64,000 nucleotides of DNA from a virus (Duplodnaviria > Caudoviricetes): the IMG/VR virus record IMGVR_UViG_3300025295_000098, positions 14,600-78,599 of that record; one strand, 5' to 3'. Below the pieces are notes generated by a model. It worked only from the letters and a program-made list of their open reading frames with translations. It searched no databases and was not told the origin of the DNA. Positions 7,375 through 63,709 of this stretch are shown one piece after another. A program made the translations under genes and the position numbers. The first letter of the stretch is position 1, and each line of letters starts with the position of its first letter.

Positions 7375-7571
7375 CCCCTCCCGAAGAGATGATCGCCTGG
7401 CTCGATCGCCGCATCGCCTCCGCCATGACATGGCTCGACGACCACGGCAAAGGCTCTAAGCGTCCTCGTCCTCAGCACGAGATCGAAACGAAGGAATACG
7501 ACATCGCCCGCTTTGAAGAGATCAAGGCGGCGTATGTGAAGGCGCTTGAGCGGAAAGGGCAGGCTACATGA
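7371..7571 (+). CDS. Hypothetical phage protein
   Basis: ATGA-coupled 66-aa ORF MTPPEEMIAWLDRR. Confidence 0.65.
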   Translation: MTPPEEMIAWLDRRIASAMTWLDDHGKGSKRPRPQHEIETKEYDIARFEEIKAAYVKALERKGQAT

Positions 7572-11039: not shown

Positions 11040-11791
11040 GCAACGATTGGTTCCGTTCATGGCATGGTGCGCCAACCGATCCGAAATGGCTCGGGATAGC
11101 CCGCCGCGCCGGTGTCGCTCCTGGTATCGCCGTTGCGGTCGCGTGGGCTCTCATGGACCGCGCCTCACAGGCATCGGATCGAGGATCGATCAAGGGCTAT
11201 GACGCCGAGGGATTGGCCTACTTCTATGGATGCGAGCCTGAGCAGGTAGAGGCCATCGTCGCCGCAATGGCTGACAAAGGCATGATCTCCGACGGGAGAT
11301 TCTCCAGCTGGGAAAAGCGGCAGCCGAAGCGCGAAGATGGCGCTGCCGAACGCGCGAGAGAATGGCGCGAACGCAAACGAACGCAAACGAACGCATCTGC
11401 AACAACAGATACAGAGACAGATACAGATCCTTCGGAAGACGCGGGCGCGCCAGAGAACGATCTTCAATTCGAAGAATTTTGGGATGCCTACCCGAACAAG
11501 ACCGGCAGGCCATCGGCCGAGAAAGCCTTCTCCCAAGCCGTCAAGCGCGCCAGCTTCGACGAGATCATGACCGGTGTCCGAACCTATGCCGCCAAGACCG
11601 ACGATCGGCAGTGGTGCTCGCCGGTGAAGTGGCTCTCCGATGACCGCTGGAAAGACCAGCCCGCCAAGCCGCCCGACAAGGGGACGCCTACGAAGCTGAA
11701 CGGGACCGGCTTCACCCACCTGCAGAAATTTCAATCCCGAGAAGAGTACCTAGCCGCCGAAAAGGCGAGATCTGAGCGGAGTTTCCGATGA
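11036..11791 (+). CDS. Phage replication initiator
   Basis: WFRSWHG..DPKW N-term HTH, WEKRQPKRED linker, FEEFWDAYP C-terminal domain. Confidence 0.8.
   Translation: MSNDWFRSWHGAPTDPKWLGIARRAGVAPGIAVAVAWALMDRASQASDRGSIKGYDAEGLAYFYGCEPEQVEAIVAAMADKGMISDGRFSSWEKRQPKREDGAAERAREWRERKRTQTNASATTDTETDTDPSEDAGAPENDLQFEEFWDAYPNKTGRPSAEKAFSQAVKRASFDEIMTGVRTYAAKTDDRQWCSPVKWLSDDRWKDQPAKPPDKGTPTKLNGTGFTHLQKFQSREEYLAAEKARSERSFR
11347..11429 (+). repeat. Iteron-like repeats inside initiator gene (candidate origin)
   Basis: CGAACGC at 11347, 11368, 11378, 11388 (10-bp period) followed by CAGA(T/G)A/C x4 at 11406-11429. Confidence 0.6.
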
Positions 11792-12330
11792 ACGTCCTAG
11801 CAAGAGATATCCGAGCCAAGCTCATGAACCCGCCGGTGAAGATCACCCGCGAACAGGTCATGGATCTGCAACAGCGCAACCGCAATCTAGCGGCCAAAAT
11901 CATCATGCTCGAAGAGGCAAACAAGGCCAAACAGGAGGTGATCGATACCCTCCTCACAGACCTTCGAAGCGAGCGAGATTTCACAAAATCGCTCGAGTTA
12001 CGGATGCGGGCGATGGATGAGGACGAATCCGGATCAGTCGATGACAAGCCGTCGATCAAGAGCATCGTCCGCGAAGAGCTGAAGGATTGGCCAGGCGTCA
12101 CCTGGGCGCAGGTCAAGGGCGGCCGTAAGCCCTGGCATGTTGTGCAGGCTCGGCGGCAGTGCTTGCAGGCTGTTTATCAGAAGCGCCCTGATCTGACGCT
12201 GCAGGAGATCGGCCGCATCTTCAACAAGGACCATTCTACTGTCTGCTATGCCGTCTATCAGGGCAACCAAGTCCTCAAGAAAATGGAGCTCAATCGGCAG
12301 CGGAAAGCCGCTGAGCGAGGTGAAGTATGA
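11788..12330 (+). CDS. DnaA C-terminal-like HTH protein
   Basis: VQARRQC...LTLQEIGRIFNKDHSTVCYAV matches DnaA domain IV. Confidence 0.75.
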   Translation: MNVLARDIRAKLMNPPVKITREQVMDLQQRNRNLAAKIIMLEEANKAKQEVIDTLLTDLRSERDFTKSLELRMRAMDEDESGSVDDKPSIKSIVREELKDWPGVTWAQVKGGRKPWHVVQARRQCLQAVYQKRPDLTLQEIGRIFNKDHSTVCYAVYQGNQVLKKMELNRQRKAAERGEV

Positions 12331-12818
12331 GCAGGAGACCTCGCCTCTATCTCGATCTCGACGGTGTCATGGCCGACTTCGATGCTCACTTCCCGGCCCT
12401 ATTCGGCGTGGACCACCGGAATATGCTCGACGATGATATGTGGGCTAAGATCAACGGGCACCCGAGCTACTTCCGGGATATGCCTCAGTGCCCTGGCGCG
12501 AAAGAGTTCTTCGACCGCATATCATGGCTTAAGCCGATCATCCTTACGGCCTGCCCGAAATCGAACTATGCGCACGTCGCCCGCCAGAAGCGGGAATGGG
12601 TGAGGGAGCACCTGTCATCCACCTGCCACATCCTGCCGGTCATGGGCGGCCGGAACAAGCCGCTCTTCATGCATTCGCCCGGCGACATCCTCGTCGACGA
12701 CTTCGAGCGAAACATCAAGGCTTGGCGCGAGGAAGGCGGGTTCGGGATCCTGCACACTGACTTCACATCGTCCAGAGATGCGATCGAACGCGAAATGGTT
12801 AGGAGTGCTGCGGCATGA
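12327..12818 (+). CDS. HAD-family 5'(3')-deoxyribonucleotidase-like protein
   Basis: LYLDLDGVMADF, ILTACP, DILVDD motifs. Confidence 0.85.
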   Translation: MSRRPRLYLDLDGVMADFDAHFPALFGVDHRNMLDDDMWAKINGHPSYFRDMPQCPGAKEFFDRISWLKPIILTACPKSNYAHVARQKREWVREHLSSTCHILPVMGGRNKPLFMHSPGDILVDDFERNIKAWREEGGFGILHTDFTSSRDAIEREMVRSAAA

Positions 12819-13279
12819 CCCGTCTAGCTCGCGTCGACATGGATGCCGTCGCTCCGCTCTATCCTAGCGACAAGGTCGCCGGCCGGGTAGCGGCAAGGGG
12901 AGAGCATTTCGATTGGCAGCCAAACCAGGCCACCAAGGTCCATTCGTCTGATCCGCTTGCCGTCCGTCGCCCTACGGAAAACGAACTGTCGAGGCCTGAA
13001 TACACGGATCTGACGGGCGCTAAGATCGGCCGGCTGACCGTGGTGGGCGTTGCAGCGGAGATAATAGGCAACGGCCAGAAGTGGGTAGTGCGCTGCGTCT
13101 GCGGATCATACGAGACCCGCAAGGCCAGGTACATCAAGGCCTGTGTCGCCGGCAACAATCCGGGAAGCAGCGATCCGATGTGCGACGCGTGCGGCTATAC
13201 CCGGAAGCTTCAGCTTGGCTACCACAACCCCAAAAAGGCGGCCGCGGCGGCGCAAGCGATCATGGAGGCGGCTCGATGA
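12815..13279 (+). CDS. Hypothetical protein with DLTG..GRLTV / CxCG motif
   Basis: Motif typical of N-termini of HNH/AP2 phage proteins; extra CxxC. Confidence 0.65.
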   Translation: MTRLARVDMDAVAPLYPSDKVAGRVAARGEHFDWQPNQATKVHSSDPLAVRRPTENELSRPEYTDLTGAKIGRLTVVGVAAEIIGNGQKWVVRCVCGSYETRKARYIKACVAGNNPGSSDPMCDACGYTRKLQLGYHNPKKAAAAAQAIMEAAR

Positions 13280-13788
13280 GCGATCTTCTCATGACGAGAC
13301 GCGTCGTGTTCTCGGATTGTGGCCTTTACCGCTATCTCCTTGAGCACGACTTCGGCGGGACCGGTCCGGTTATCTCGATCGGGATGGTCAACCCATCCAG
13401 CGCGGATGAGGAAAAGAACGATCCTACCATGACGAAGATCGACGGCTTCGCCGCGCACCTCGGCGCCAGCAAGGTGAAGGTCTGGAACAAGTGCGCGTTG
13501 CGCAACAAGGACGTGAAGGCGCTCCGCGCGGCAGCTGACCCGATCGGGCCGGAAAATGACGCCTACATCGAGCAGGCGATCCGCGATGCAGATATTCACA
13601 TCGTCGCATGGGGACCGCTTGCCAAGCTTCCGCGACCTCTCCGCAACCGATGGCGCGATGTCGTGGATGTCATGACCCGCGCTGGCTGCCGGCCGATGTG
13701 CTGGGGCACTGCCGGCGACGGGCAGCCGCGCCACCCGCTGATGGTCGCCTACGCCACGCCCCTAGGCCCATGGGAGGCGCCACGGTGA
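13276..13788 (+). CDS. DUF1643-family protein
   Basis: FSDCGLYRY.L, IGMVNPSSADEEKNDPT, AWG, PRHPL. Confidence 0.85.
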   Translation: MSDLLMTRRVVFSDCGLYRYLLEHDFGGTGPVISIGMVNPSSADEEKNDPTMTKIDGFAAHLGASKVKVWNKCALRNKDVKALRAAADPIGPENDAYIEQAIRDADIHIVAWGPLAKLPRPLRNRWRDVVDVMTRAGCRPMCWGTAGDGQPRHPLMVAYATPLGPWEAPR

Positions 13789-52871: not shown

Positions 52872-52945
52872 GGCCTCGTGGCGGAGTGGTGACGCAGAGG
52901 ACTGCAAATCCTTGTACCCCGGTTCAATTCCGGGCGAGGCCTCCA
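52872..52945 (+). tRNA. tRNA-Cys(GCA)
   Basis: 74 nt; acceptor GGCCTCG/CGAGGCC, anticodon loop CTGCAAA, T loop TTCAATT, encoded CCA. Confidence 0.97.
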
Positions 52946-52946
52946 A
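52902..52946 (+). repeat. attL core (3' part of tRNA-Cys)
   Basis: 45-bp exact match to 63591-63635. Confidence 0.95.
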
Positions 52947-53084
52947 CAAATTCCACAACAAAAACAGCGGCTTAGCAAAGGGCTCCGGACTTCCTGGGCC
53001 TTCCATGTGCCATTCATGTGCCGCAAAATTTTACCAACAACTACAACGAATTTCCGCGAGCTCTTCTGGCTCCCGGCAGCTCCG

Positions 53085-53104
53085 TGCGACATGCATGCAA
53101 CATG
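53085..53104 (+). repeat. Candidate integrase arm-type sites (left)
   Basis: TGCGACATG / TGCAACATG at 11-bp period; matches pair at 63532-63551. Confidence 0.6.
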
Positions 53105-53169
53105 CCGGCTGCCTAAACCCCGGCCGTGGCTCTATTTTTTATCCTTCCGAGTTGTGCGATCCTTCCCCT

Positions 53170-53697
53170 ATGCCCGCGCCCTCGAAAAGAACGCCGTCCT
53201 CCGATCCGCATCGCTCCCTGCGGGCGGTGATGGTCGCGAATCCCTATTTCGCCCCGGCGCATGACGGCGACGTGAGCAACCCCCGAACCATTCCGGCGAT
53301 CGTCAACATCCGGGAAAGTGCCATCACGATGCTGGCCTCGCGCGGGCGGATCGACGCCGCTCAGCTCGCCGCAGCGACGAGGTTCCGCGCCTTGTGGGAA
53401 GCGATGTGCCGGAGCACGCGGGCGATCGATTACGGTCGGGAGCCGGTAGATGGCGGCGGTCATGCGGACCCGATCAGCCACAGGCAGATGCATGCGGCCG
53501 AGGAGCTGCGGCGCGTCCGACCTCTGCTCGGCGAGAAAGGCTACTGGCTGGTGTCCCGGATTTGTGGCGAGGGCTATTCTCTCGGTGAGATCGTCGGCCC
53601 AGGCGCCAGCAAGAGGGCCAAGTTGAAAGCCGCCCGCGACCTCCGAGAATTCCTCGATCTGCTCTGTGAATACTGGAACCTGTCCACGCGGCGCTGA
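53170..53697 (+). CDS. Putative late activator/antiterminator-like protein (DUF6456-like)
   Basis: GRIDAAQLAAA.RFR..WE...AIDY.RE.VDGG...L...LG; start uncertain (53170 or 53229). Confidence 0.65.
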   Translation: MPAPSKRTPSSDPHRSLRAVMVANPYFAPAHDGDVSNPRTIPAIVNIRESAITMLASRGRIDAAQLAAATRFRALWEAMCRSTRAIDYGREPVDGGGHADPISHRQMHAAEELRRVRPLLGEKGYWLVSRICGEGYSLGEIVGPGASKRAKLKAARDLREFLDLLCEYWNLSTRR

Positions 53698-53869
53698 TGC
53701 CCTGCCTTGCCTCCCACGGGGCCGCCAGCGCGTTTCGTCGGCAGGGCCGGGGGAATATGCTCCGTGCCGAACATCGTCGTCTCTGGCGTCCTACGTTCAC
53801 GTAGCCGTTTCAGGGGAAGACCCGCTATGATACTGATTATCGCGACTTCTCATTAACGGAGCAAAGCGG

Positions 53870-54148
53870 GTGAAAAATTTACATGAAGAAGTCCGCTTCT
53901 TTGTCTGGGCTTGGTTGGTCCTTGCGCCTTGCTGTGCGGTACTGTTTGGCGGAACGATACTTTATGTCAAAATCAATGACATTGATCCGTCCACGGTCGC
54001 GGATGTCTCGTTCTTTTGGCCGGTGATGCTTTTCGCTTTTCTGACGATTCTTCTCCTGGTCGAACTGGGGTCCCAGTCAAAATTCAGGACCGGCTTTTTT
54101 ACGGCATGGCTTCAGATGGCGATGGGAGAAATTACAATTGCTGTATGA
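53870..54148 (+). CDS. Small two-TM protein
   Basis: Two hydrophobic segments; GGAG RBS before GTG. Confidence 0.5.
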   Translation: MKNLHEEVRFFVWAWLVLAPCCAVLFGGTILYVKINDIDPSTVADVSFFWPVMLFAFLTILLLVELGSQSKFRTGFFTAWLQMAMGEITIAV

Positions 54149-54248
54149 GCGTGGACGGCGAGACAAGTAAACTCAGCAACACCAGTCGTTTCGCCGCCGC
54201 GCGGACACCTGGGGCCTTGTTGCAGGACTAAGGCCATCTCCGCGCACA

Positions 54249-54566
54249 TCACGATTTCGACTTCCGCCAGCCGGCGGCCCAAGCTTCGAATTCCGTGCAG
54301 AACCATCGTTCGCCATACTGGGGGCTGATCTTAGTCTGTGAGTAATATTTCTGCCCCGGCACGTGAAAGATGCGCTCGCCCGTGTCGATGGAGACGTTGC
54401 CCTTGATTCGGCACGATTGTCCGGCGCCGGCAGAAGCGGTGAATGAGGCCAGCATGTCGCTCGCGGTCCAGCCGCCGGCCGCGCCGAACGCGATAGCGCC
54501 GATGACCAAACCCGGCGCCCTGAGCAGCACCGATTTCTTTTGCGGAACGCGATAACCCTGACGCAT
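54249..54566 (-). CDS. ExoI-like exported small protein
   Basis: TM then C.IKGNVS..GERI.HVPGQKYY..T.IS..YGERWFC.E.EA.AAGWRKS. Confidence 0.8.
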   Translation of the reverse strand: MRQGYRVPQKKSVLLRAPGLVIGAIAFGAAGGWTASDMLASFTASAGAGQSCRIKGNVSIDTGERIFHVPGQKYYSQTKISPQYGERWFCTEFEAWAAGWRKSKS

Positions 54567-54963
54567 GTCCCCATCTCCGACATGGGTGGGGATCGTATCC
54601 GCGTTGGCGCCCGGCGAACATCTCTACAAAAGCGGTATCTGGGCCGTCGCCGCAATCCGCCTTTGTCCAGGCCGCTCAGGGTTATCAAATTCAGCCAGTA
54701 AACTTGATTTCAGCCGATACCAGCCGGCCTACGCTTGCCGACGCCGGCCGGTATTCTCCAACATTCTGTGTAGCACTGTGCCAACGTGGAGACTTAGCCG
54801 ACCCGTCCCCTTTGCGTTGGCTTAGCCGAATGGCAACTTTGAGTGATAGAATCGACGTTACGAGTAGGCTCACCACCGGCGCGACGATGGAAACGTATGT
54901 GCGCCGTGCCGACCGTTTTAAGGATCATGCCGGAGATGGTTTTCTGTAGAAGGTAGACGCAAC

Positions 54964-55599
54964 ATGGTACTCTGGCCCCACCCACGAAGATCCGACTGGG
55001 ATGATCTTTCCGATTTTGTGGTCCACTTGACGCGGAACAACGCTGGCATCAATGCCGCCTTCAATTTCGTAGCGATACTGAGAGATGGTCGGATCGAAGC
55101 TCGTAACAGATTCGGTATCGGTTACGCCTTTGATCAGTGCCCCTCAGCTGTTTGCCTAACTGAGACACCGCTGCACCAAATGATCCGTATCGCAGACCGC
55201 CGAAGCGTGTTTGGCATCGGATTCCTGAAGAGTTTTGTTGCAGAAGCAGGCGGTGGCCCGGTTGGGTACTTATATGGCGACCGGCAAACAGCAGCCCGAA
55301 GTTTGATGCGGGAAGCCATCGACGATGCCGAAAACCCGATTTGGAAACTGGCTCCGTTCCTAGATGGGCCGAGGCAGAATTATAGCTTCGAATGGGAACG
55401 GGAATGGCGAGTTCCACGAGAACTTGCCTTCCAACCGGAACAGGTTTGCTTTCTCACCGGACCTGACGACGAGCACGACAGGATGCGGGAGTATTTTGAA
55501 CAAGAGCACCGGGAGAGCGATTTCCCCAACTACCAGATGCCACTGATCGACCTGCGATGGAGCCGAGAGCGTATGCATGAGGAGTTGGGTAGACAATAA
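54964..55599 (+). CDS. AbiGi-like / ADP-ribosyltransferase-fold protein
   Basis: VVHLT, F.AIL..G, VCLTETPL, FGIGF.K, GGGPV.Y, EWEREWR. Confidence 0.7.
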   Translation: MVLWPHPRRSDWDDLSDFVVHLTRNNAGINAAFNFVAILRDGRIEARNRFGIGYAFDQCPSAVCLTETPLHQMIRIADRRSVFGIGFLKSFVAEAGGGPVGYLYGDRQTAARSLMREAIDDAENPIWKLAPFLDGPRQNYSFEWEREWRVPRELAFQPEQVCFLTGPDDEHDRMREYFEQEHRESDFPNYQMPLIDLRWSRERMHEELGRQ

Positions 55600-55683
55600 C
55601 AGTTGCGTCGACAACGGTGACGTTCTGCACAAGAAAATCAGCGATAACGGTCTTTATCGCTACCTTGCATATGTAACGCGCGT

Positions 55684-55998
55684 TCATTGGCAGCGAGGCG
55701 GCAGATAGCGCGACCACCCAAACCGGCTTCGAAGGAGGAAGATGATCGCCCGGAGCGCCACATCGTCGGTACCGGCGGCAAGACGGAGAAGATGGCCGAC
55801 AAGAGCGGCTTCAAGCTTGGCGGCGCCGACATTCAGCTGCTCGCGATAGTATCGCCTCAACGTTTTCGGATCGATCTCCATCACGCGGCCGATTTCGCGT
55901 TGGGGGATGCCCTGAGAGGCAAGCATCTGGACGATGCGACGGTCGCTTGGAGTGGGGATATGCGGAGGTCGTCCGGGGGTGGGTTTCGGGTGCATCAT
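55684..55998 (-). CDS. Terminase small subunit-like HTH protein
   Basis: GRPPH.PT...R..V..LA..GIPQ.EI......D.KTLRRYY...L..G; AIIF.L..R.GW. Confidence 0.75.
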   Translation of the reverse strand: MMHPKPTPGRPPHIPTPSDRRIVQMLASQGIPQREIGRVMEIDPKTLRRYYREQLNVGAAKLEAALVGHLLRLAAGTDDVALRAIIFLLRSRFGWSRYLPPRCQ

Positions 55999-56029
55999 CC
56001 ACAGGCGGGAAAAACCGTCCTCGATGTTT

Positions 56030-56115
56030 TGTGTCGGCGAGAAAAAAATCTCCAGATGAGGTGGACGCGGGTCTTCTGGCCGGCGGCCATCTTGGCACTC
56101 CCACCCCCCCCCGCT
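56030..56115 (-). other. cos-like packaging region upstream of satellite terS
   Basis: Minus strand reads G9-TGGGAG...GACCCGCGTCCACCTCA...T7-CTCG, a layout recalled from cos phages. Confidence 0.5.
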
Positions 56116-56192
56116 GGTTCGGTCCAGCGCGAATCGTGCTACTGGTTCGCTTCTAGCACGATCCTCTAGGCAGGACGCTGAGTTACTTCGCC

Positions 56193-56936
56193 ATGACGGA
56201 AGAGCTTACCAAAATCGCAGACGAAATGGCTGGGCTGCTCGGGTTCTTCGTTGACAGCCGAATGTCCGGCTTGATCCTCCCATCCGAGCACTCATCCACT
56301 TTCGTTGCCCTAGCTCTTGAAGCAAAGTCTATGATCGAGGAACAGCTCGGCCCAGCCAACAGCTACTCACTGAATTTGATCCATGCTGTGAATTCCGGCG
56401 CTGGCGGCTTCGCAGACGGCCCGTCTTATGCTTCTGTGGATGAGACATCGAAGGTCATCCGCGCGGCAGTTCGCACTATCGAGCGCAAGCGAGTAAGGCC
56501 GCCGGCTTTGCCGCCCGGTTCAACTCCCTACGTTGATCCAGCGCGTGTCGTCGCGCTCCAAGCCATCAGTAAGGGGCCGTGGGACTTTACGCGGCTTGTG
56601 GAGCTTTGCCGCGAGATCAACGTAACCGCTGCTAATCGGTGTCATATGTCAACGGCGATGCTCCTTCGCACCATACTCAACCATGTACCTCCCGTGTTTG
56701 GCTTTAACGCATTCGCAGAAGTAGCCAACAATTACGGCGGAGCCAAATCGCAGAAGTCCTTCAAAGCTTCAATGCAGCGCCTTGAGGGTTCGCTCCGCAA
56801 TATTGCAGACATGCATCTTCATTCCCCGATCAGAGCACGTGAGGACGTGCCGACAGCCGTTCAGGTGGATTTTGCAGCCGACCTTGATGTTCTACTCGGC
56901 GAAATAATTCGAACGGCCGGCGTTCAGACAGCCTGA
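56193..56936 (+). CDS. Hypothetical protein, HEPN-like candidate
   Basis: Helical; C-terminal RNIADMH (R-x5-H) motif; opposite strand to flanking operon. Confidence 0.6.
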   Translation: MTEELTKIADEMAGLLGFFVDSRMSGLILPSEHSSTFVALALEAKSMIEEQLGPANSYSLNLIHAVNSGAGGFADGPSYASVDETSKVIRAAVRTIERKRVRPPALPPGSTPYVDPARVVALQAISKGPWDFTRLVELCREINVTAANRCHMSTAMLLRTILNHVPPVFGFNAFAEVANNYGGAKSQKSFKASMQRLEGSLRNIADMHLHSPIRAREDVPTAVQVDFAADLDVLLGEIIRTAGVQTA

Positions 56937-56973
56937 GGAATGCCATTATGCCTCCTTCACCAGCGCAGCAACG

Positions 56974-57132
56974 TTATTGCAATCGCGTCGAGGGCGCGTC
57001 GGGCTCGCTGAAATAACGATAAACTGCTCCGGCAAGCATCGCGCTCTCCTTCTCCGTCGGCGCGCGGCGGAATGTGCGGAAGAATGCCTCGACGACATTC
57101 TTGCAGGTAGCTTCGATCTCCGAGCTGGTCAT
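56974..57132 (-). CDS. Small hypothetical protein, 52 aa
   Basis: MTSSEIEATCKNVVEAFFRTFRR..., starts 2 nt after upstream stop; not in ORF track. Confidence 0.4.
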   Translation of the reverse strand: MTSSEIEATCKNVVEAFFRTFRRAPTEKESAMLAGAVYRYFSEPDAPSTRLQ

Positions 57133-57134
57133 GG

Positions 57135-57341
57135 TCATTCCCTTTGTTGCCGCGCCGCGATGCGGACAATCGGCTTGCCCTTGGTCGTGCCGGCCTGAGC
57201 TTCAAGAAGCACAAGGCGGGCTTCCAGTGCGTCAAGGCGGGCGGCCACGGGTGACAGGTTCCGTTCGAGATGGCCCGTCACGATCTGGACGATCTCGGCG
57301 CCGAACTGTTTGCCGTCAAAGCTCATCTGCGTACCCTCCAA
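57135..57341 (-). CDS. Small coiled-coil protein
   Basis: MSFDGKQFGAEIVQIV...LDALEARL; follows capsid gene. Confidence 0.6.
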   Translation of the reverse strand: MEGTQMSFDGKQFGAEIVQIVTGHLERNLSPVAARLDALEARLVLLEAQAGTTKGKPIVRIAARQQRE

Positions 57342-58355
57342 TCAGCCCGACGCCAGAGTGGGCCATTCGATACCTGACAAAACGGCGATCGCGTCGTCGG
57401 TCCCGGCAGAGACGCCGAACAAGGCGGAGACCTTCACGGCGATGGCGTTGGTTTGCCACAAGCTGACAAGGTTCGTGGCTGTCGGCGTGACCGCGTTATT
57501 CGTCGGAGCATCGTTGATTTCGAGGGCGGCATGGCGCGAAATGTCGATCCCGAGGCTCTCGATGTCCGCCAGGATGCGGTCGCCGTCGAGGAGGATGAGC
57601 GTGCCGGGGCTGACGCCGGCCGAGACGGCGAAAGGCAAGTTCAGGAACTCCGAAAGCCCTTCCGGCGAGGCGCTTCCTCGGCCGTCATTCAACAGGGAAA
57701 TGCTGTTCGCGACGTCGGGCGAGGCGATCCAGCAGAGCCGGCCTTCGCCGGTGTTCACCGCATCCAACATCTGTTTCAAGTCAGCAGCATGATTGTCGGT
57801 GGCGGCGAACGACGGTGTGGCGGATGTGATGAGCGTGCTGAGGGCGCCGACGTCGAGCGCCTTTGCGACCGCACGGCGGAGCTGCCGGCTCAGAAATGCC
57901 TGGGCGGCGGCCGAGGCGTTCTCGATGACTTCCCTGGACAAGACGATGATCGCGTCGGCCTGTTGCGGCTGGAGCTGATCGCCGTTCAACGACATGCGCG
58001 AGACCGGCCGAGCTTTGCCTTCTCCGGTCACATCGGCGATGACGCCTTCGGAGATCGAGCCGACGCGGGACCGCAAGGGAGCCCTTGAGATGACGCCCAG
58101 ATCGAGCAGGGCGGCGAAAGCGCTCCGGCCGCCAAGACCCTGGAGGAAAGCGGAACTCGCGGCTTGCATGTCGGCCAACTGCCCGGCCCATGCCGGATCG
58201 GCCAATGTCCCGGCGGCAATCGCCGCTTTCAAAATCCTTTGGGCCGGCGCCGGCATGCGAAGCCGGTCAGCTATGTCGCCGATCGGCGCGCCCGTCTTCT
58301 CGGCGACGGCGAGAGCTCGGACGAGGGCCAAGATTGTTGATGCGTGTTCGTTCAT
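57342..58355 (-). CDS. HK97-family major capsid protein homologue
   Basis: GEGKARPVS.......L.P....AI..LSREVI; SLWQTN..A.K; AGGAG RBS before ATG 58355. Confidence 0.85.
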   Translation of the reverse strand: MNEHASTILALVRALAVAEKTGAPIGDIADRLRMPAPAQRILKAAIAAGTLADPAWAGQLADMQAASSAFLQGLGGRSAFAALLDLGVISRAPLRSRVGSISEGVIADVTGEGKARPVSRMSLNGDQLQPQQADAIIVLSREVIENASAAAQAFLSRQLRRAVAKALDVGALSTLITSATPSFAATDNHAADLKQMLDAVNTGEGRLCWIASPDVANSISLLNDGRGSASPEGLSEFLNLPFAVSAGVSPGTLILLDGDRILADIESLGIDISRHAALEINDAPTNNAVTPTATNLVSLWQTNAIAVKVSALFGVSAGTDDAIAVLSGIEWPTLASG

Positions 58356-58431
58356 TTCGGGAACTCCTGCTTTGACCACAAGGGTGCAGGCCGAAACGCT
58401 CATGGGGAAGGACCTTAAACGCTCGAAACGC

Positions 58432-58725
58432 TCACAGGGCATCATTCCCGGTGTGACGGCGGAGGCGCGGGATCGATACGCGAAGGCGACCGCCGCGCTT
58501 GAATCCTATGCCATCCTCATTGGCCCACCGGCGGATCGTGGATTTGGAGACTTTGGCCCGTTGAGCGGCGGTCCCGGTGTCGATCAGATTATACTGCGCG
58601 AAATCGTCATCAATGACGTCGGGGGCCGGCGCCGGTTCCGATCCCGCGCCGGCTATTTTCTCCCGCAATGTTAGCAAGGCCGCGATAGCACTGTCGAGTA
58701 GGGCAAGCGCATCGGCGGTCGTCAT
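58432..58725 (-). CDS. Excisionase-like HTH protein
   Basis: LIDT..AAQRA.VS.STIRRW....IG.K.GGR.RVS. Confidence 0.7.
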   Translation of the reverse strand: MTTADALALLDSAIAALLTLREKIAGAGSEPAPAPDVIDDDFAQYNLIDTGTAAQRAKVSKSTIRRWANEDGIGFKRGGRLRVSIPRLRRHTGNDAL

Positions 58726-58793
58726 GATCGCTCCTCCTGAGGGATCGCCGCCCAGACTCCTAAAGACCGGGCGGCTATCTCTTGCTGTAGTGA

Positions 58794-59366
58794 TCAGGCC
58801 GACAGGTTGGCATCGACATACCGAAGGAATTCGATTGCAAGCGGATCGCCCTGCTCGGCTTTCCGCTCCGCGTGCTCGATCACGCTCGCTCCCAGGTCCC
58901 CAATATCATCAAAAAGGGGGGCGAAACGAGCGTGCGTCTCCATCCGCCGTTTCCGTTCCTCCATTCGTTCCTTGAGCACGTGCAACCCTTCTTCACCGGC
59001 TTTCCTGAACTGCTCGTTAGTCGCATGGCCGCATTCGCTGATGAGCTGCCGCCGCATTTCCTCAACATCCTGGTTGTTGACGAAAATATCGACCATGCGC
59101 CGATGCAGGGCCATCTCCGGCGGGAGCTTCGAATAGTCAGGCGGCATTTGCGGTTCAGCGGATGCCGGAATATGACCCATCATCCGGCCCGCTCGGATCA
59201 TGCCGCGCACCGCGTTATCTGCGACCTCGCGAGCCAATTCCGGGCAAGCCACGCGAAAGCGTTTCATGAGTTCGAGGTCACCGCAGTAAGGCACTCCGTC
59301 ATCCGTCGCCTTGGCCATGATGTCGGCCAGCTTGCTCCTCTGCTCGCTGTTCAGCACGTTTGTCAT
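58794..59366 (-). CDS. Hypothetical helical protein
   Basis: 190-aa ORF, GGAG RBS. Confidence 0.65.
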   Translation of the reverse strand: MTNVLNSEQRSKLADIMAKATDDGVPYCGDLELMKRFRVACPELAREVADNAVRGMIRAGRMMGHIPASAEPQMPPDYSKLPPEMALHRRMVDIFVNNQDVEEMRRQLISECGHATNEQFRKAGEEGLHVLKERMEERKRRMETHARFAPLFDDIGDLGASVIEHAERKAEQGDPLAIEFLRYVDANLSA

Positions 59367-59561
59367 GATCGTCTCCTTCCTTGCACCGGCGCCGGGACTG
59401 GCGCCTTTTCATCTCTCATTGAAAGTCCGAAACTCCCGCCGCAACGCCTCCTCGCCGGTTCGCGTGCCATGTTTGCCATGAGTTTGCTTTTCCAGTGTTC
59501 GCGCGCCGCGCGCGTATGACGCCCGAAATGGAAGGTCGTGGCACACGTGGCACCGAGGCGT

Positions 59562-60962
59562 TTAATCGAACTCTCCATAGCGTCCTCCCCGAGCTGGCTC
59601 GGAAAGTCTAAGCCCGTAAATACCCCGCATTTTTTGAATCCTAGCGGACGTGAATCCACGCGCTTCGAGCGCCTGTTTGAAGCTCTTCTGCGAGCCTGCG
59701 GTCTCGCCGGATCGTTCCGCCCAGCTTTTCCAGGACGCATAGAGAGGGGTGGTGCCCTCGAACGCTTGCGGATCGCGCTGGCAACAATCCTCCATCCAAG
59801 CACCAAGAGCGTCCTCGGCGTCCAGATAATGGGCGGTTGCTTCCGTGACCGCTCTCGGTGGCGACAGGCCGATACGCTGCCATTCGAGGCAACCTTCGAT
59901 CGCCCAGGCGAAAATCCCCGGCCATTCCTCCTTGAGTTTTTCCGTCAGGGTTTCATCCCGCTCCTCGGGCGGGATCGTCACTGTGAAGGGGATCAGGTTG
60001 AAGCGACGGCGGATCGCTTCGTCAACGGAGCGCAAGCTGGGCTTGTGGTTACCGGCGATCACGAGCTTGAACTGCGGCTGGTATTCGAAAAAGTCCTGCC
60101 GCATGAAGCGCGCGGCTATACGGTCGCCGCCGGTTAGCGCCTTGATCTTCGATTCCGCCCAACGGCGTCCTTCTTCCGTCTCCACCGCCGTCACCAGCCG
60201 CGCGCCGCGCAAGCCGGCAAGCTCGGTGGGATGACGGTCACCGCTAGACGCGACAAACGTCTCGATGGGTGCGCTCCTGCCGTAATCACCGACAACATTC
60301 ATCAGCGTGTCGATGAAGACACTTTTGCCGTTGCCGCCGTGGCCGAACAGAAAGAACAGCGCGTGTTCGCGGGTGATGCCGGTCAGGCAATACCCCGCCA
60401 CCCGCTGGAGGAAGGCTTGCAGTTCCTCGTCTCCGGCCGTGACGCGGGCGAGAAAGGCGCGCCAGAGCGGGCAATCCCCACCGGGCGCCACCGTTGAGAT
60501 TTTAGTCAAATAGTCGCCCGGCGAGGCAATGCGGAGCCTGCCGGTTGTCAGATCAACAACACCGGCTGGCGTATTGATGCTCCAATTATCTCGATCCCAT
60601 TGATCAATCGCTGCCGCGATCCGCCGGTCCGCCCGGATCAGTGAGGCGACGGCTGCCACGGTTTTGGCACTGGCGAGCCGCCGCCGAACCTCCTCCTTGC
60701 CATCGCAATCTGAGGCGAATTCTCGGCACAGTCGGCGGCACTGGTCGTAAACACCGAGCGTCTTGTCCGCTCGCCAGACCTTGCCGTCCCATTCCATCCA
60801 CTGGCTCCAGGCAGCGACAAATCGGAGATGAAAATTGTTCCGGTTGGCAAATTCAAGCGCCAGGGCCTCTTCCGAATAGGCTGGCGGAGCGGGTTCCTCC
60901 ATTCTGTGCGCCTGATGATACACATCGAGTCTGATAGCTCCGAACTTTGGTTCGTCGGTCAT
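59562..60962 (-). CDS. P4-family primase/D5-like SF3 helicase
   Basis: D5_N (W..WDG..W, INTP.GVVDL.TG), Walker A GHGGNGKS, AIRRR. Confidence 0.93.
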   Translation of the reverse strand: MTDEPKFGAIRLDVYHQAHRMEEPAPPAYSEEALALEFANRNNFHLRFVAAWSQWMEWDGKVWRADKTLGVYDQCRRLCREFASDCDGKEEVRRRLASAKTVAAVASLIRADRRIAAAIDQWDRDNWSINTPAGVVDLTTGRLRIASPGDYLTKISTVAPGGDCPLWRAFLARVTAGDEELQAFLQRVAGYCLTGITREHALFFLFGHGGNGKSVFIDTLMNVVGDYGRSAPIETFVASSGDRHPTELAGLRGARLVTAVETEEGRRWAESKIKALTGGDRIAARFMRQDFFEYQPQFKLVIAGNHKPSLRSVDEAIRRRFNLIPFTVTIPPEERDETLTEKLKEEWPGIFAWAIEGCLEWQRIGLSPPRAVTEATAHYLDAEDALGAWMEDCCQRDPQAFEGTTPLYASWKSWAERSGETAGSQKSFKQALEARGFTSARIQKMRGIYGLRLSEPARGGRYGEFD

Positions 60963-61492
60963 GACGTCGCCCCCTCACGCCTGCGCAGGATAGACACCTG
61001 TGGCATCCGCGCGGGCCGCATGTGCCGGGTGTAGACCGGCAGGAGGGCTTCGTGGACGGCGACGCGCGGGCAATGGCGAAGTTCATCAAAGGCGCGCCGC
61101 CAATCGATGATCACGACCCCGTCGCGGCCGGCTTTAAGCCAGTGAAGGGGGCTCCTGTAGACATGAAGGCAGTGGCCGAGGGAATAGGTTCCGGCATTGT
61201 CGACTGCCTGCTCGCCCAGCGCGAACGCTCGGCCCGTCCAGCGCGCCAGCTCATCGTTTTCCGGTCGCCAAAAGCAGATGTCTTCACACTCGCGGAAAGC
61301 CAACCAAGTTGGGCCGCTACGGTCTACTTCGAAGAAGCCGTCATGCCCGCGAAAGCCATGGATCAGACGGATCGGCTCGGGCTCAACAATCGCCGCTTTT
61401 GATACACCGCAGGCGATTAGCCAATCGATGTGGCGTGTCAAAAGCCAACCAAGGGGCGGCGAGTCGAAATAATCTAAATCAATTTTCGTCAT
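60959..61492 (-). CDS. Hypothetical protein coupled to primase
   Basis: ATGA overlap with primase; possible primase-associated domain. Confidence 0.65.
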   Translation of the reverse strand: MTKIDLDYFDSPPLGWLLTRHIDWLIACGVSKAAIVEPEPIRLIHGFRGHDGFFEVDRSGPTWLAFRECEDICFWRPENDELARWTGRAFALGEQAVDNAGTYSLGHCLHVYRSPLHWLKAGRDGVVIIDWRRAFDELRHCPRVAVHEALLPVYTRHMRPARMPQVSILRRREGATS

Positions 61493-61609
61493 CAGCGGTC
61501 TCCATTCGGAAACCACCGCGAGTTGCGCGAAGCTGCTGGCTAGGGTATTTTCCGAACGTCCCCGAAGACGCCCATCACCCCATGCAGCCGCCGTGCGAAA
61601 GTGCGGCGG

Positions 61610-61807
61610 TCATGCGGCATCCATGAAAAAAGCGACTAGCTTGCCGCGCTCCGCGACCCATCGGTTGCCGACCTTCTTGGCCGGGAGCTCGCCGCTGTCG
61701 AGCATGTGGAACGTGGCCCGCTGGGACCTGCCAATGAGTTTCGCGATGTTCGCCGCACCCCAGACAAGTTCTAGAGGCGGAGCGGAATCTTTCGTAATTT
61801 CTTCCAT
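61610..61807 (-). CDS. AlpA/excisionase-like regulator
   Basis: LVWGAANIAKLIGRS.RATFHML..G.LPAKKVGNRWV; GGAGG RBS. Confidence 0.8.
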   Translation of the reverse strand: MEEITKDSAPPLELVWGAANIAKLIGRSQRATFHMLDSGELPAKKVGNRWVAERGKLVAFFMDAA

Positions 61808-61826
61808 TGGATGATTGCCTCCTGTA

Positions 61827-61895
61827 ATATCCAGAGGATATGATATATCCAACGGATAGGTTTGATAGTCAAGCCGAAACATATCCACTGGATAG
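61827..61895. promoter_or_regulatory. Three palindromic operator sites in divergent switch region
   Basis: ATATCC-AGA-GGATAT (61827), ATATCC-AAC-GGATAG (61845), ATATCC-ACT-GGATAG (61881). Confidence 0.75.
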
Positions 61896-61917
61896 GTTTA
61901 AAGAGAAGATATGAGAA

Positions 61918-62340
61918 ATGGCCGAAAACAGAACGAACATTGACCAGTTTCAACTGCGACTTCCGCCTGGGATGCGCGAACGTATTAAGGCGGCGGGCGA
62001 TCGTAACGGCCGCAGCATGAACGCCGAAATCGTCAGAGCGCTCGAGATGGCTTTTCCGGAGCCTGTTTCGATCAGTGCGCGCCTTGAGGAACTGCACCAT
62101 CTTTTCTCCGCGATGAGGAAGATTCGCGGATACGGCGGCGCAATTGACGTGATTACGGAGGAGATCGTGAACGCTATTGAGGCGGGCGCCGCCGGTCGCG
62201 ATCCAACTCTGGATGAAGACGCTGTGGGTGAATTGCAGAAGGCGCTACTCAAATGGAAAGGTCGGCAAGATGCCGACGTGGCCGCACGCAAGAGAGCGGT
62301 AGACGAAAAGTACCAGTCCAACGGCGAGGCCGATAAATGA
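61918..62340 (+). CDS. Arc-family repressor
   Basis: DQFQLRLPPGMRERIKAA...GRSMNAEIVRAL. Confidence 0.88.
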   Translation: MAENRTNIDQFQLRLPPGMRERIKAAGDRNGRSMNAEIVRALEMAFPEPVSISARLEELHHLFSAMRKIRGYGGAIDVITEEIVNAIEAGAAGRDPTLDEDAVGELQKALLKWKGRQDADVAARKRAVDEKYQSNGEADK

Positions 62341-63530
62341 GCGTCCGCAAGCGAGAATGGGTAACACCGAAAGGCGAACAGAAATATGCTTGGGTCGTTG
62401 ACTATTTCGACACGGGCGGCAAGCGCCGGCTGAAGAGTTTCACAAGGAAGAAGGAAGCCGACCAGTTTGCCGCCACGGCTGCCGTCGAGGTGAGGGCAGG
62501 GACGCACGTTGCCGACTCAGCAAGCGTGACGGTCGAGAAGGCCGGGTCACTGTGGATCGCCTCTGGTGAGAATGCCGGCCTTGAGCGCTCGACAGTCAAT
62601 CAGCGCAAGAGTCACTTGGAGCATCACATCGTGCCGATGATCGGTCAGGTGCTCTTGTCAAAGCTCACCGTGCCGGCCGTGCGCGACTTTGAGGATCGTA
62701 TGCGGAAAGAAGGCCGATCACCAGCAATGGTGAAAAAGATTCTGACTTCGCTCGGCTCAATACTCGCGGACGCTAGTGAGCGTGGGCTTGCAGCTCGCAA
62801 TCCGGTGCGAGATATCAAGGGAAGCAGGAAGGGCCGGGACAGGCGGCAGGAGAAGCGCCAGAAGGGCAAACTTAAGGTCGGAACTGATATTCCAACCCCT
62901 GCGGAGATCAAGGCGCTCCTCGGCGCCCTTGAGGGCAACTGGCGCCCGCTGTTGTTGACCGCAGTCTTTACAGGCATGCGTTCGTCGGAGTTGCGCGGCC
63001 TGCGCTGGCAGGACGTCGATTTCAAGCGCGGAGAGATTGCCGTCCGTCAACGGGTGGATCAGTTCCGGGAAATGGGGCCACCGAAGTCAGAAGCTGGGGT
63101 GCGGACCATTCCAGTGCCGCCGCTTGTCGTCAACACTCTTAAAGAGCTGAAGCTCAAGCAGGGGAACAAGCCTGTCCTTGTGTTCGCCAATCCCGATGGT
63201 GACTCGCGCTCACACTCGAACGTCGTCAGGAAGGGCCTCCAGCCGGCGATGGTGCGGGCGGGCGTAACGACCGATACCGGTAAGCGTGACAAAAATGGCA
63301 AGCCGATCCTCAGGGCCAAGTACACGGGCTTGCATGCGTTGCGCCACTTCTTCGCAAGCTGGCTGATCAACCGGAAGGAAGACGGCGGTCTCGGCCTGCC
63401 GGCAAAGATGGTTCAAGAGCGCCTCGGACATGCTTCGATCGTGATGACGATGGACACTTACGGGCACCTGTTTGCACGCTCGGATGACGGAACAGAGCTG
63501 GCACAAGCAGCGAACATCCTGCTCAGCTAA
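62337..63530 (+). CDS. int: Tyrosine recombinase (integrase)
   Basis: TGMRSSELRGL, HALRHFFAS, LGHAS..MT.DTYGH; adjacent to att. Confidence 0.96.
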   Translation: MSVRKREWVTPKGEQKYAWVVDYFDTGGKRRLKSFTRKKEADQFAATAAVEVRAGTHVADSASVTVEKAGSLWIASGENAGLERSTVNQRKSHLEHHIVPMIGQVLLSKLTVPAVRDFEDRMRKEGRSPAMVKKILTSLGSILADASERGLAARNPVRDIKGSRKGRDRRQEKRQKGKLKVGTDIPTPAEIKALLGALEGNWRPLLLTAVFTGMRSSELRGLRWQDVDFKRGEIAVRQRVDQFREMGPPKSEAGVRTIPVPPLVVNTLKELKLKQGNKPVLVFANPDGDSRSHSNVVRKGLQPAMVRAGVTTDTGKRDKNGKPILRAKYTGLHALRHFFASWLINRKEDGGLGLPAKMVQERLGHASIVMTMDTYGHLFARSDDGTELAQAANILLS

Positions 63531-63531
63531 C

Positions 63532-63551
63532 TGCAACATGTATGCAACACG
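63532..63551 (+). repeat. Candidate integrase arm-type sites (right)
   Basis: TGCAACATG / TGCAACACG at 11-bp period. Confidence 0.6.
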
Positions 63552-63590
63552 AGGGCAGAAATCTCTTTAAAAACAATAGGCGGCAAAAGC

Positions 63591-63635
63591 CTGCAAATCC
63601 TTGTACCCCGGTTCAATTCCGGGCGAGGCCTCCAA
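63591..63635 (+). repeat. attR core (duplicate of tRNA-Cys 3' end)
   Basis: 45-bp exact match to 52902-52946. Confidence 0.95.
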
Positions 63636-63709
63636 AATTTTCCCACATGACATAGTCGGTTAGAAAATGCGGCTCGCTGGCGGTGCGGCGTCAGTGCTTG
63701 CGACGGGTC

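Follow-up and report, generated by a model that had tools for sequence, protein, structure and literature searches.

The core of a phage-inducible chromosomal island (PICI) consists of five components, namely an integrase, a regulator, a primase-replicase, a capsid-morphogenesis gene and terS (SatelliteFinder paper, PMC10085698). Several described satellites carry a homologue of the helper capsid protein. EcCICFT073 of Escherichia coli encodes the capsid homologue c1499 and the decoration protein c1500 and has a helper-type cos, and PmCI172 of Pasteurella multocida encodes a major capsid protein (MCP) homologue and forms small capsids (PMC6092414). SaPIbov5 combines a helper cos with the capsid homologue Ccm (PMC5052747, PMC8569155); Ccm has 24% identity to the capsid protein of its helper and makes up the pentons (PMC8569155). 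Marine VEIMEs encode no major capsid genes (PMC9618062), and the satellites of soil bacteria are virtually unknown, according to a 2026 review (PMC13486102). Here we describe an island of 10,689 bp in a tRNA-Cys gene of Rhizobium, which lies in a stretch of 64 kb (the window) taken from the 78.6-kb IMG/VR provirus record IMGVR_UViG_3300025295_000098; the record lumps the island together with a prophage. Counterparts of all five PICI core components are present in the island, the regulator as a candidate module. We consider it, with a probability of roughly 0.7, to be a helper-dependent PICI-type phage satellite that belongs to a large, apparently undescribed lineage of the Rhizobiales.

PICIs are discrete islands of about 10-15 kb, bounded by att sites and with a terminal tyrosine integrase, and the island has this form. 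Its ends are a direct repeat (52894-52954 vs 63583-63643) with an exact core of 45 bp, the two copies being 10,689 bp apart; attL coincides with the 3' part of the tRNA gene at 52872-52945, and int occupies 62337-63530 at the other end. The features on which our reading chiefly depends are as follows.

52872..52945, plus strand: host tRNA-Cys (GCA), found by ARAGORN and as Rfam tRNA (63.8 bits); its 3' part is attL
52902..52946: attL, 45-bp exact core of the direct repeat, by repeat comparison
55684..55998, minus strand: TerS-like helix-turn-helix (HTH) protein of 104 aa (phrog_12540, 4e-15; phrog_309, 1.6e-5)
56043..56112, minus strand: cos-like composite motif, G-run ... CCCGCG ... ATTTTTT, within the conserved non-coding block 55999-56125 upstream of terS
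57135..57341, minus strand: small conserved open reading frame (ORF) 1, here small1, 68 aa, coiled coil, with matches to phrog_1289; kept in 10 of the 12 islands with an MCP
57342..58355, minus strand: HK97-fold MCP homologue of 337 aa (PF05065, 5.8e-6; phrog_617, 1.1e-25), with no protease or scaffold domain
59562..60962, minus strand: D5_N and SF3 helicase, the C-terminal two thirds of the P4-alpha type (PF08706, 1.3e-24; PF19263 (DUF5906), 1.7e-11; phrog_6088, 8e-142)
62337..63530, plus strand: tyrosine integrase (PF00589, 2.9e-18; phrog_1, 1.5e-67)
63591..63635: attR, 45-bp exact core, by repeat comparison

The place of the PICI capsid-morphogenesis gene is predicted, from both sequence and model, to be taken by the HK97-fold MCP homologue. 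The protein scores 26.3 bits against PF05065 (Pfam cut-off of 24.2), and its AlphaFold model (pLDDT 66.8) matches HK97-fold capsids in Foldseek with a probability of 1.0, with Bxb1 and HK97 as the top matches. The profile of the family likewise matches the Bxb1 capsid protein among PDB sequences at 2.8e-9. The island MCP aligns to residues 312-658 of a 659-aa Peptidase_S78::Phage_capsid fusion protein (S78::MCP fusion) from a Rhizobium prophage, with 29% identity and an E-value of 5e-32. Because the alignment covers only these residues, the island protein appears to be a shell-only capsid protein, devoid of protease and scaffold. The ORF that follows it, small1, aligns with the post-portal proteins of two Rhizobium prophages (L037 and L038), and we read it as a shortened homologue of phrog_1289, the phage protein whose gene comes next after that of the portal. 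In L038 this post-portal protein (6574-7440, minus strand) has three repeats of about 40 aa (DGKSVTIEDVAPM...), a collagen-like stretch and a C-terminal CBM-like domain, and longer satellite versions of small1 retain that CBM-like domain. The phage protein may be a neck or head fibre.

The assignment of TerS was made on the basis of the PHROG family and synteny, not of fold. Phage members of phrog_12540 sit directly upstream of TerL; the TerS of L038 matches this family at 7e-35 and its gene overlaps the start of TerL, and gp17 of a Vibrio phage is located between HNH and TerL. By alignment, the island protein corresponds to the N-terminal ~100 residues of phage TerS. Via structure comparison, the model of the island protein reached Sf6 TerS with a Z-score of 4.8, amid generic HTH proteins. 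Judged by these alignments, the island thus encodes three trimmed head and packaging homologues that stem from one phage type: an MCP without protease and scaffold, a post-portal protein and an N-terminal TerS.

Upstream of terS lies a composite pattern, defined as a G-run, CCCGCG 30-48 nt later and ATTTTTT 8-22 nt after CCCGCG. It occurs once in the window, against 0.00 occurrences expected by chance; 11 satellites and the three Rhizobium prophages L036-L038 each have a single copy ahead of terS. About 125 bp upstream of terS are conserved even between satellites whose MCPs are only 31% identical, and the same non-coding blocks stand between the HNH and terS genes in L036-L038. A 21-nt block, CTCATCTGGAGATTTTTTTCT (window 56040-56060), is identical in the Paracoccus phage vB_PthS_Pthi1 (MK291444.1 14510-14530; L046 6001-6021), a cultured alphaproteobacterial siphophage. 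There it stands between HNH and a gene in the position of terS, 2 nt ahead of the latter, and the product of this gene is homologous to the island TerS. The conserved site is therefore a candidate for a cos-type packaging site common to satellite and phage, which points to the type of helper. PICIs are expected to carry terS and/or a helper cos or pac site; the island has a phrog_12540 protein together with a motif in common with HNH/cos prophages. A strict cos-like pattern gave 0 matches in IMG/VR and blastn of the region against phages returned the single 21-nt match only; a metagenome scan for the region found 3 short contigs, an IMG/VR scan one further island and a scan of a plasmid collection none. 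An RNA element at this block was considered and rejected, as it had no Rfam match and no supported consensus structure.

Weak TerS matches led us to L036-L038, in which the order of genes is HNH endonuclease, TerS (phrog_12540), TerL, S78::MCP fusion, two small genes, portal, post-portal protein (phrog_1289) and Ad1 adaptor. Since homologues of the island MCP, TerS and small1, as well as the motif, are found in these prophages, the helper type can be named: the evidence points to an HK97-like HNH/cos phage with an S78::MCP fusion. Satellites and helper-type prophages are too few across 173 Rhizobium species genomes to bear on their co-occurrence. Rhizobium phage RHph_X2_26, which has a similar MCP-fusion layout but an unrelated TerS, was not retained as a helper candidate. 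The prophage beside the island (window 17875-49526) looks like a complete myovirus, in which TerL, portal, a NUDIX-protease fusion, a phrog_264 MCP, sheath and tape measure were recognised. It probably does not serve as the helper, because its TerL, portal, protease and MCP belong to different families and it lacks both the motif and a TerS homologue; searches of it gave no match to PF05065, PF04860, PF04586 or PF03354.

The rest of a phage head and tail is missing from the island, as in PICIs. A six-frame search of the whole 78.6-kb record found no Phage_portal (PF04860), Peptidase_S78 (PF04586) or TerL_ATPase (PF03354), tblastn with helper-type HNH, TerL, portal and Ad1 adaptor proteins gave no match within the island, and neither kind of search uncovered pseudogene fragments of portal, TerL or protease there. 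No tail or lysis genes are present among its ORFs, and the helicase is the only ORF of more than 400 aa. The original prediction, made from the letters and translations alone, had described a 10.7-kb satellite with an integrase, Arc, AlpA, a P4-type primase-helicase, a xis-like HTH protein, an HK97-type capsid homologue, TerS and a cos-like region, and with no portal, protease, TerL or head-tail genes. This inventory proved correct overall: the att repeat, the integrase and the gene content agree with a satellite-type island, the listed genes were recovered by profile matches (for TerS, also by the TerL-adjacent position of its phage relatives), the cos-like region emerged as a conserved motif and the absences held in the Pfam and tblastn searches. 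It went astray in that AlpA was weakly founded and two small conserved ORFs were overlooked. Its further suggestions, that the helper is an HK97-like cos phage and that the neighbouring myovirus probably is not, agree with the capsid, TerS and cos-like parts held in common with L036-L038 and with the phrog_264 MCP of the myovirus.

Set beside EcCICFT073 and PmCI172, the island has the same plan: about 10-15 kb, a terminal integrase, a small HTH regulator and a primase-replicase with an origin (regulator and origin being candidates in the island), a lone MCP homologue, a helper-type cos or terS function and accessory genes, whereas genes for portal, TerL, tail and lysis are lacking. This likeness is one of gene content. 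The island differs in its alphaproteobacterial host, in a regulator composed of Arc and a Cox/HTH_17-like protein with no recognisable AlpA, in an MCP of the S78::MCP-fusion HK97 lineage and not of the lambda E or Mu-like type, in a truncated TerS instead of Rpp, and in its third helper-derived gene, the post-portal homologue. With SaPIbov5 and SaPIbov4 it has in common a helper cos-type site, cos phages as (here predicted) helpers, and an HK97-fold capsid homologue of low identity to that of the helper (24% in the SaPI, 26-33% in the island); the SaPIs keep a terS remnant (PMC5052747, PMC8569155). The SaPIs differ in their Firmicute host and in Stl-type regulation, where the island has Arc, and in the predicted helper type of the island the MCP is fused to its protease. 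The helpers of SaPIbov5 and SaPIbov4 are probably HNH-dependent too. Ccm retains an 87-residue delta domain and its role in pentons was shown by cryo-EM, whereas a role for the island MCP is suggested by analogy; this MCP is without the protease and scaffold part of the helper-type fusion.

Capsid-forming PICIs (cf-PICIs) resemble the island in their left arm (integrase, regulator, primase) and in having an HK97-type capsid gene as well as terS, but they additionally code for portal, protease, head-tail adaptor and connector and TerL/HNH, all of them absent from the island. P4-like satellites resemble it in tRNA integration, in their size of about 11 kb, in an alpha-type primase-helicase of Toprim and D5_N/SF3 domains (divided in two in the island), in cos packaging by the helper terminase and in capsid-size redirection as a strategy, which for the island is suggested by analogy. 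However, no island ORF has a Pfam or PHROG match to Sid, Psu, Delta or Epsilon, the helper is of another type, and redirection in the island would work through a capsid paralogue, with no external scaffold. PICMIs (phage-inducible chromosomal minimalist islands) and the marine VEIMEs have no capsid or capsid-remodelling gene, whereas the island has an MCP homologue. The earlier claim that the island is neither a cf-PICI nor a minimal PICI therefore stands as far as cf-PICIs and PICMIs are concerned, and is not supported where it implied a new class, because counterparts of the five PICI core components are present and EcCICFT073, PmCI172 and SaPIbov5 carry capsid homologues. Literature searches found no published description of a rhizobial island family of this kind, and we regard the island as a new, apparently undescribed rhizobial lineage of PICI-type satellites.

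Relatives were sought in Rhizobiaceae genomes and IMG/VR. Eleven further islands with a short MCP were found (L002, L003, L025-L032 and L035), each adjoining a tRNA gene (Ser, Pro, Lys, Arg or Cys). L002 and L031 come from R. ecuadorense CNPSO 671. For five of the eleven, att repeats were detected, and in L003, L030, L031 and L032 these are 9.8-10.8 kb apart; L035 lies at tRNA-Cys and is interrupted by a contig end, and in the others int and the tRNA delimit about 9-12 kb. All of them have their genes in the order int, regulators, replication, HTH17, MCP, small1, small2, terS, cargo, DUF6456 gene and tRNA. The replication module is swapped among islands (a D5_N helicase, an HTH_36 initiator, or AAA_25 with a winged HTH protein), and the frame of capsid and packaging genes is constant. 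A deeper branch, L028, keeps MCP, small1 and terS, its TerS being of another family (phrog_12559). A maximum-likelihood tree places 26 short MCPs and 25 phage MCPs on opposite sides of a single branch (SH-aLRT 98), with long internal branches among the short MCPs. Pairwise ratios of non-synonymous to synonymous substitution (dN/dS) lie between 0.19 and 0.26 for the MCP; for terS, small1 and the DUF6456 gene they span 0.16-0.49. A search of 1.8 billion representatives with the MCP profile returned 634 proteins at E<=1e-30; most of the top 150 matches are 325-365 aa long, and the named ones come from Phyllobacterium and Aurantimonas. Judged by their sequences, the short-MCP islands are a large and constrained family, not debris. 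For several MCP homologues (P0005, P0009, P0039, P0049, P0055 and P0061), the longest contig in public data measures 9.5-11.5 kb, close to the length of one island, and such contigs could be assembled free circular or cos-ended forms. In the distant island L026, an 822-aa ORF (11179-13647, plus strand) lies downstream of small2 and has weak tape-measure-like PHROG matches (6e-13); it may belong to a tail or be cargo with a coiled coil.

From attR to attL, the island carries int and Arc on the plus strand, followed by the switch region; the minus strand then carries the small HTH protein, the 185-aa ORF, the D5_N/SF3 helicase, the 190-aa protein, the HTH_17 protein, the capsid gene, the two small ORFs and the TerS-like gene. 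The tRNA-side end holds four cargo-like genes and a DUF6456-like gene. A scan for promoters and terminators gave counts at chance level. The genes and sites that complete the regulatory, replication and capsid modules are listed below.

56974..57138, minus strand: small conserved ORF 2, here small2, 54 aa, with the C-terminal motif DAPSTRLQ; a conserved family among the islands
58432..58725, minus strand: HTH_17/MerR-type small protein (PF12728, 1.1e-5), first gene of the capsid operon; precedes the MCP in 7 islands
58794..59366, minus strand: 190-aa protein that matches no family; its counterpart in island L041 has 94% identity
59443..59562: candidate replication origin, GTGCCAC / TGGCA repeats directly downstream of the helicase gene, proposed from position
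60959..61516, minus strand: 185-aa ORF that overlaps the helicase start, 59-70% identical in L041 and L042; resembles Toprim_2 proteins by structure in the ESM Atlas (TM 0.58-0.61)
61610..61807, minus strand: small HTH protein in the AlpA/Cox position, with weak Phage_Cox/HTH_17 matches and a homologue in L035; the ORF may extend back to 61888
61803..61899: switch region with four ATCCA-N3-GGAT palindromes between divergent operons, from sequence repeats
61918..62340, plus strand: Arc-type ribbon-helix-helix protein (PF03869, 3.8e-12; phrog_3178, 1.5e-15), in the direction of int and overlapping its start

The regulatory module, which in PICIs is of the alpA, merR or stl type, would consist here of Arc, a candidate for the master repressor, of the small HTH protein and of the four palindromes at the divergent switch. 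The matches of the small HTH protein (61610-61807/61888) to Phage_Cox/HTH_17 have E-values of 0.004-0.01, below the cut-offs, and it has no match to PF05930 (AlpA); what remains of the predicted AlpA is thus a small HTH protein in the AlpA/Cox position. The HTH_17/MerR-type protein at 58432-58725, the xis-like gene of the original prediction, is a candidate excisionase or activator. For replication, the island has the D5_N/SF3 helicase and candidate origin repeats beside it. The 185-aa ORF is probably a split-off, Toprim-like primase domain, an assignment that takes the ESM Atlas structure match as a lead, so that the domains of the P4-type primase-helicase would be divided over two ORFs.

The genes between the capsid and packaging block and the tRNA are as follows.

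53170..53697, plus strand: DUF6456-like protein (orf157), last gene beside the tRNA (phrog_21451, 8.5e-54; ESM Atlas DUF6456 clusters, 0.96); its start is placed by comparison with homologues
53870..54148, plus strand: small hydrophobic ORF, possible cargo, with weak matches only; uncertain as a real gene
54249..54566, minus strand: 105-aa cargo gene (phrog_21287, 3.8e-11; tblastn to L031, L039, L040, L041 and L045)
54964..55599, plus strand: 211-aa cargo gene that varies between islands, with no family match; absent from relatives
56193..56936, plus strand: 247-aa cargo gene, opposite to the operon direction; absent from relatives

None of the cargo genes, including those at 54964-55599 and 56193-56936, has a PADLOC match or a Pfam match above cut-off. 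The DUF6456-like gene is kept in L002, L003, L030-32, L035, L039 and L043, with dN/dS of 0.16-0.25. The 105-aa cargo gene is 77-90% identical in L031, L039, L040, L041 and L045, whose core genes are far more diverged, which suggests its recent exchange among satellites.

Seven sister islands without a capsid gene (L039-L045) were observed in Rhizobium genomes (G336, G419, G412, G174, G411, G510 and G002). L039-L043 and L045 retain small1, small2, terS and the orf157 gene or its remnant, and the helicase of L041 is 92% identical to that of the island. The capsid slot of these six, upstream of small1, holds a protein of 139-155 aa whose HEAxH motif is FtsH-like and which neither Pfam nor PHROG matches (examples are L041:6083-6502, L042:8083-8547 and L045:7750-8214), and this protein may be an alternative means of helper subversion. 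The L039 region (G336:C23:81000-100999) contains, inside 20 kb, one full island together with a number of fragments of terS and another DUF6456 gene, and looks like tandem accretion, or decay, of satellites at a single site. A broader reading, which we put forward tentatively and hold to be less probable than not, is that the short MCPs are an old, separate 'pirate' capsid lineage (at least 150 clusters at 50% identity, in the Rhizobiales) that defines a major satellite family, equipped with a kit of three trimmed helper proteins and a helper cos, and with a capsid slot that is interchangeable with the HExxH protease-like gene. If true, a second way of subverting the same helper would be implied.

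We propose a series of linked steps for the island as a satellite. An infecting or induced HNH/cos phage with an S78::MCP fusion would relieve Arc repression of the leftward operon, Arc being co-transcribed with int. The island would then excise, replicate by means of its own primase-helicase and repeat-rich origin, and form concatemers. The helper HNH and terminase would cut and package these at the cos-like site of the island, where the short TerS may aid or redirect them as a specificity factor. The satellite MCP would co-assemble with the helper fusion protein, which would give protease and scaffold in trans, and small capsids fitted to about 10-11 kb would result, by analogy with Ccm of SaPIbov5; portal, tail and lysis would be contributed by the helper.

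Several observations weigh against this proposal. The TerS-like protein is without the Lys-rich C-terminal tail of phage TerS; a fold search with it gave generic HTH proteins only and Foldseek none at E<=0.001 (model pLDDT 78), and a PDB sequence search again returned generic HTH proteins only. Confidence in the MCP model is moderate (pLDDT 66.8). The cos reading is drawn from conservation and position only, and a late promoter or some other regulatory element is an alternative reading of the motif. In this copy only, the 247-aa cargo gene splits the capsid genes from cos and terS. A helper-type prophage was not found in two satellite-bearing genomes, save for one MCP fragment. Lastly, in Logan contigs, which cannot reveal rare junctions, the island has the depth of its flanks and no attP or attB joint was seen.

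The alternative that survives best, although we consider it unlikely, is that the island serves defence or interference as an integrative element without being packaged itself, that it spreads otherwise or mostly vertically, and that its capsid, TerS and post-portal homologues act only as decoys or poisons of assembly. The three phage-derived proteins are all shortened, as could be expected of dominant-negative forms, the cargo varies in a hotspot, the sister islands have a small HExxH protein in place of the MCP, and the contig data gave no evidence of excision. However, unless the islands are packaged, it is difficult to see why 11 of them should keep the phage-type non-coding site ahead of terS, and the narrow sizes of about 9-11 kb, the intact att sites at many tRNAs and the islands' own replicons likewise speak against this alternative. 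Known PICIs, moreover, interfere and are packaged as well (PMC6092414).

Far less probable is a remnant left by deletions in a full HK97-like prophage or in a cf-PICI, the outcome that the original prediction had named as its refutation. Such a remnant would account for the origin of the MCP, TerS and post-portal homologues in one phage head module and for the lumping of the island with a prophage in IMG/VR. Yet the same reduced set and order recur in 12 islands (this one and the eleven others) at five tRNA types, and the island order of MCP, small1, small2 and terS is not the phage order of terS, terL, MCP, portal and post-portal. The supported branch between short and phage MCPs, with its deep internal branches, dN/dS of about 0.2 and the lack of portal, TerL and protease pseudogene fragments argue in the same direction. 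Least credible of all is an encapsulin-like nanocompartment shell carried as cargo, since the HK97-fold matches in Foldseek do include encapsulins but in sequence the protein is closest to phage S78::MCP fusions and to the Bxb1 capsid protein, the Pfam match is to Phage_capsid with no encapsulin family match, a cargo-enzyme partner is absent, and the gene shares its operon with a TerS homologue and a cos-like site.

A helper-dependent PICI-type satellite is thus the reading that we favour. Next to nothing has been published on the satellites of soil and plant-associated bacteria, and the island family is a concrete and testable rhizobial satellite-helper system. It offers a defined helper type (HNH/cos, with an S78::MCP fusion), a candidate cos site and a capsid paralogue that may shrink the capsids of the helper; if the analogy holds, the system would join Ccm as another, independent example in which a capsid paralogue redirects the capsid. 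The variable cargo slot may carry anti-phage genes, and the system has a bearing on phage resistance and gene flow in inoculant strains.

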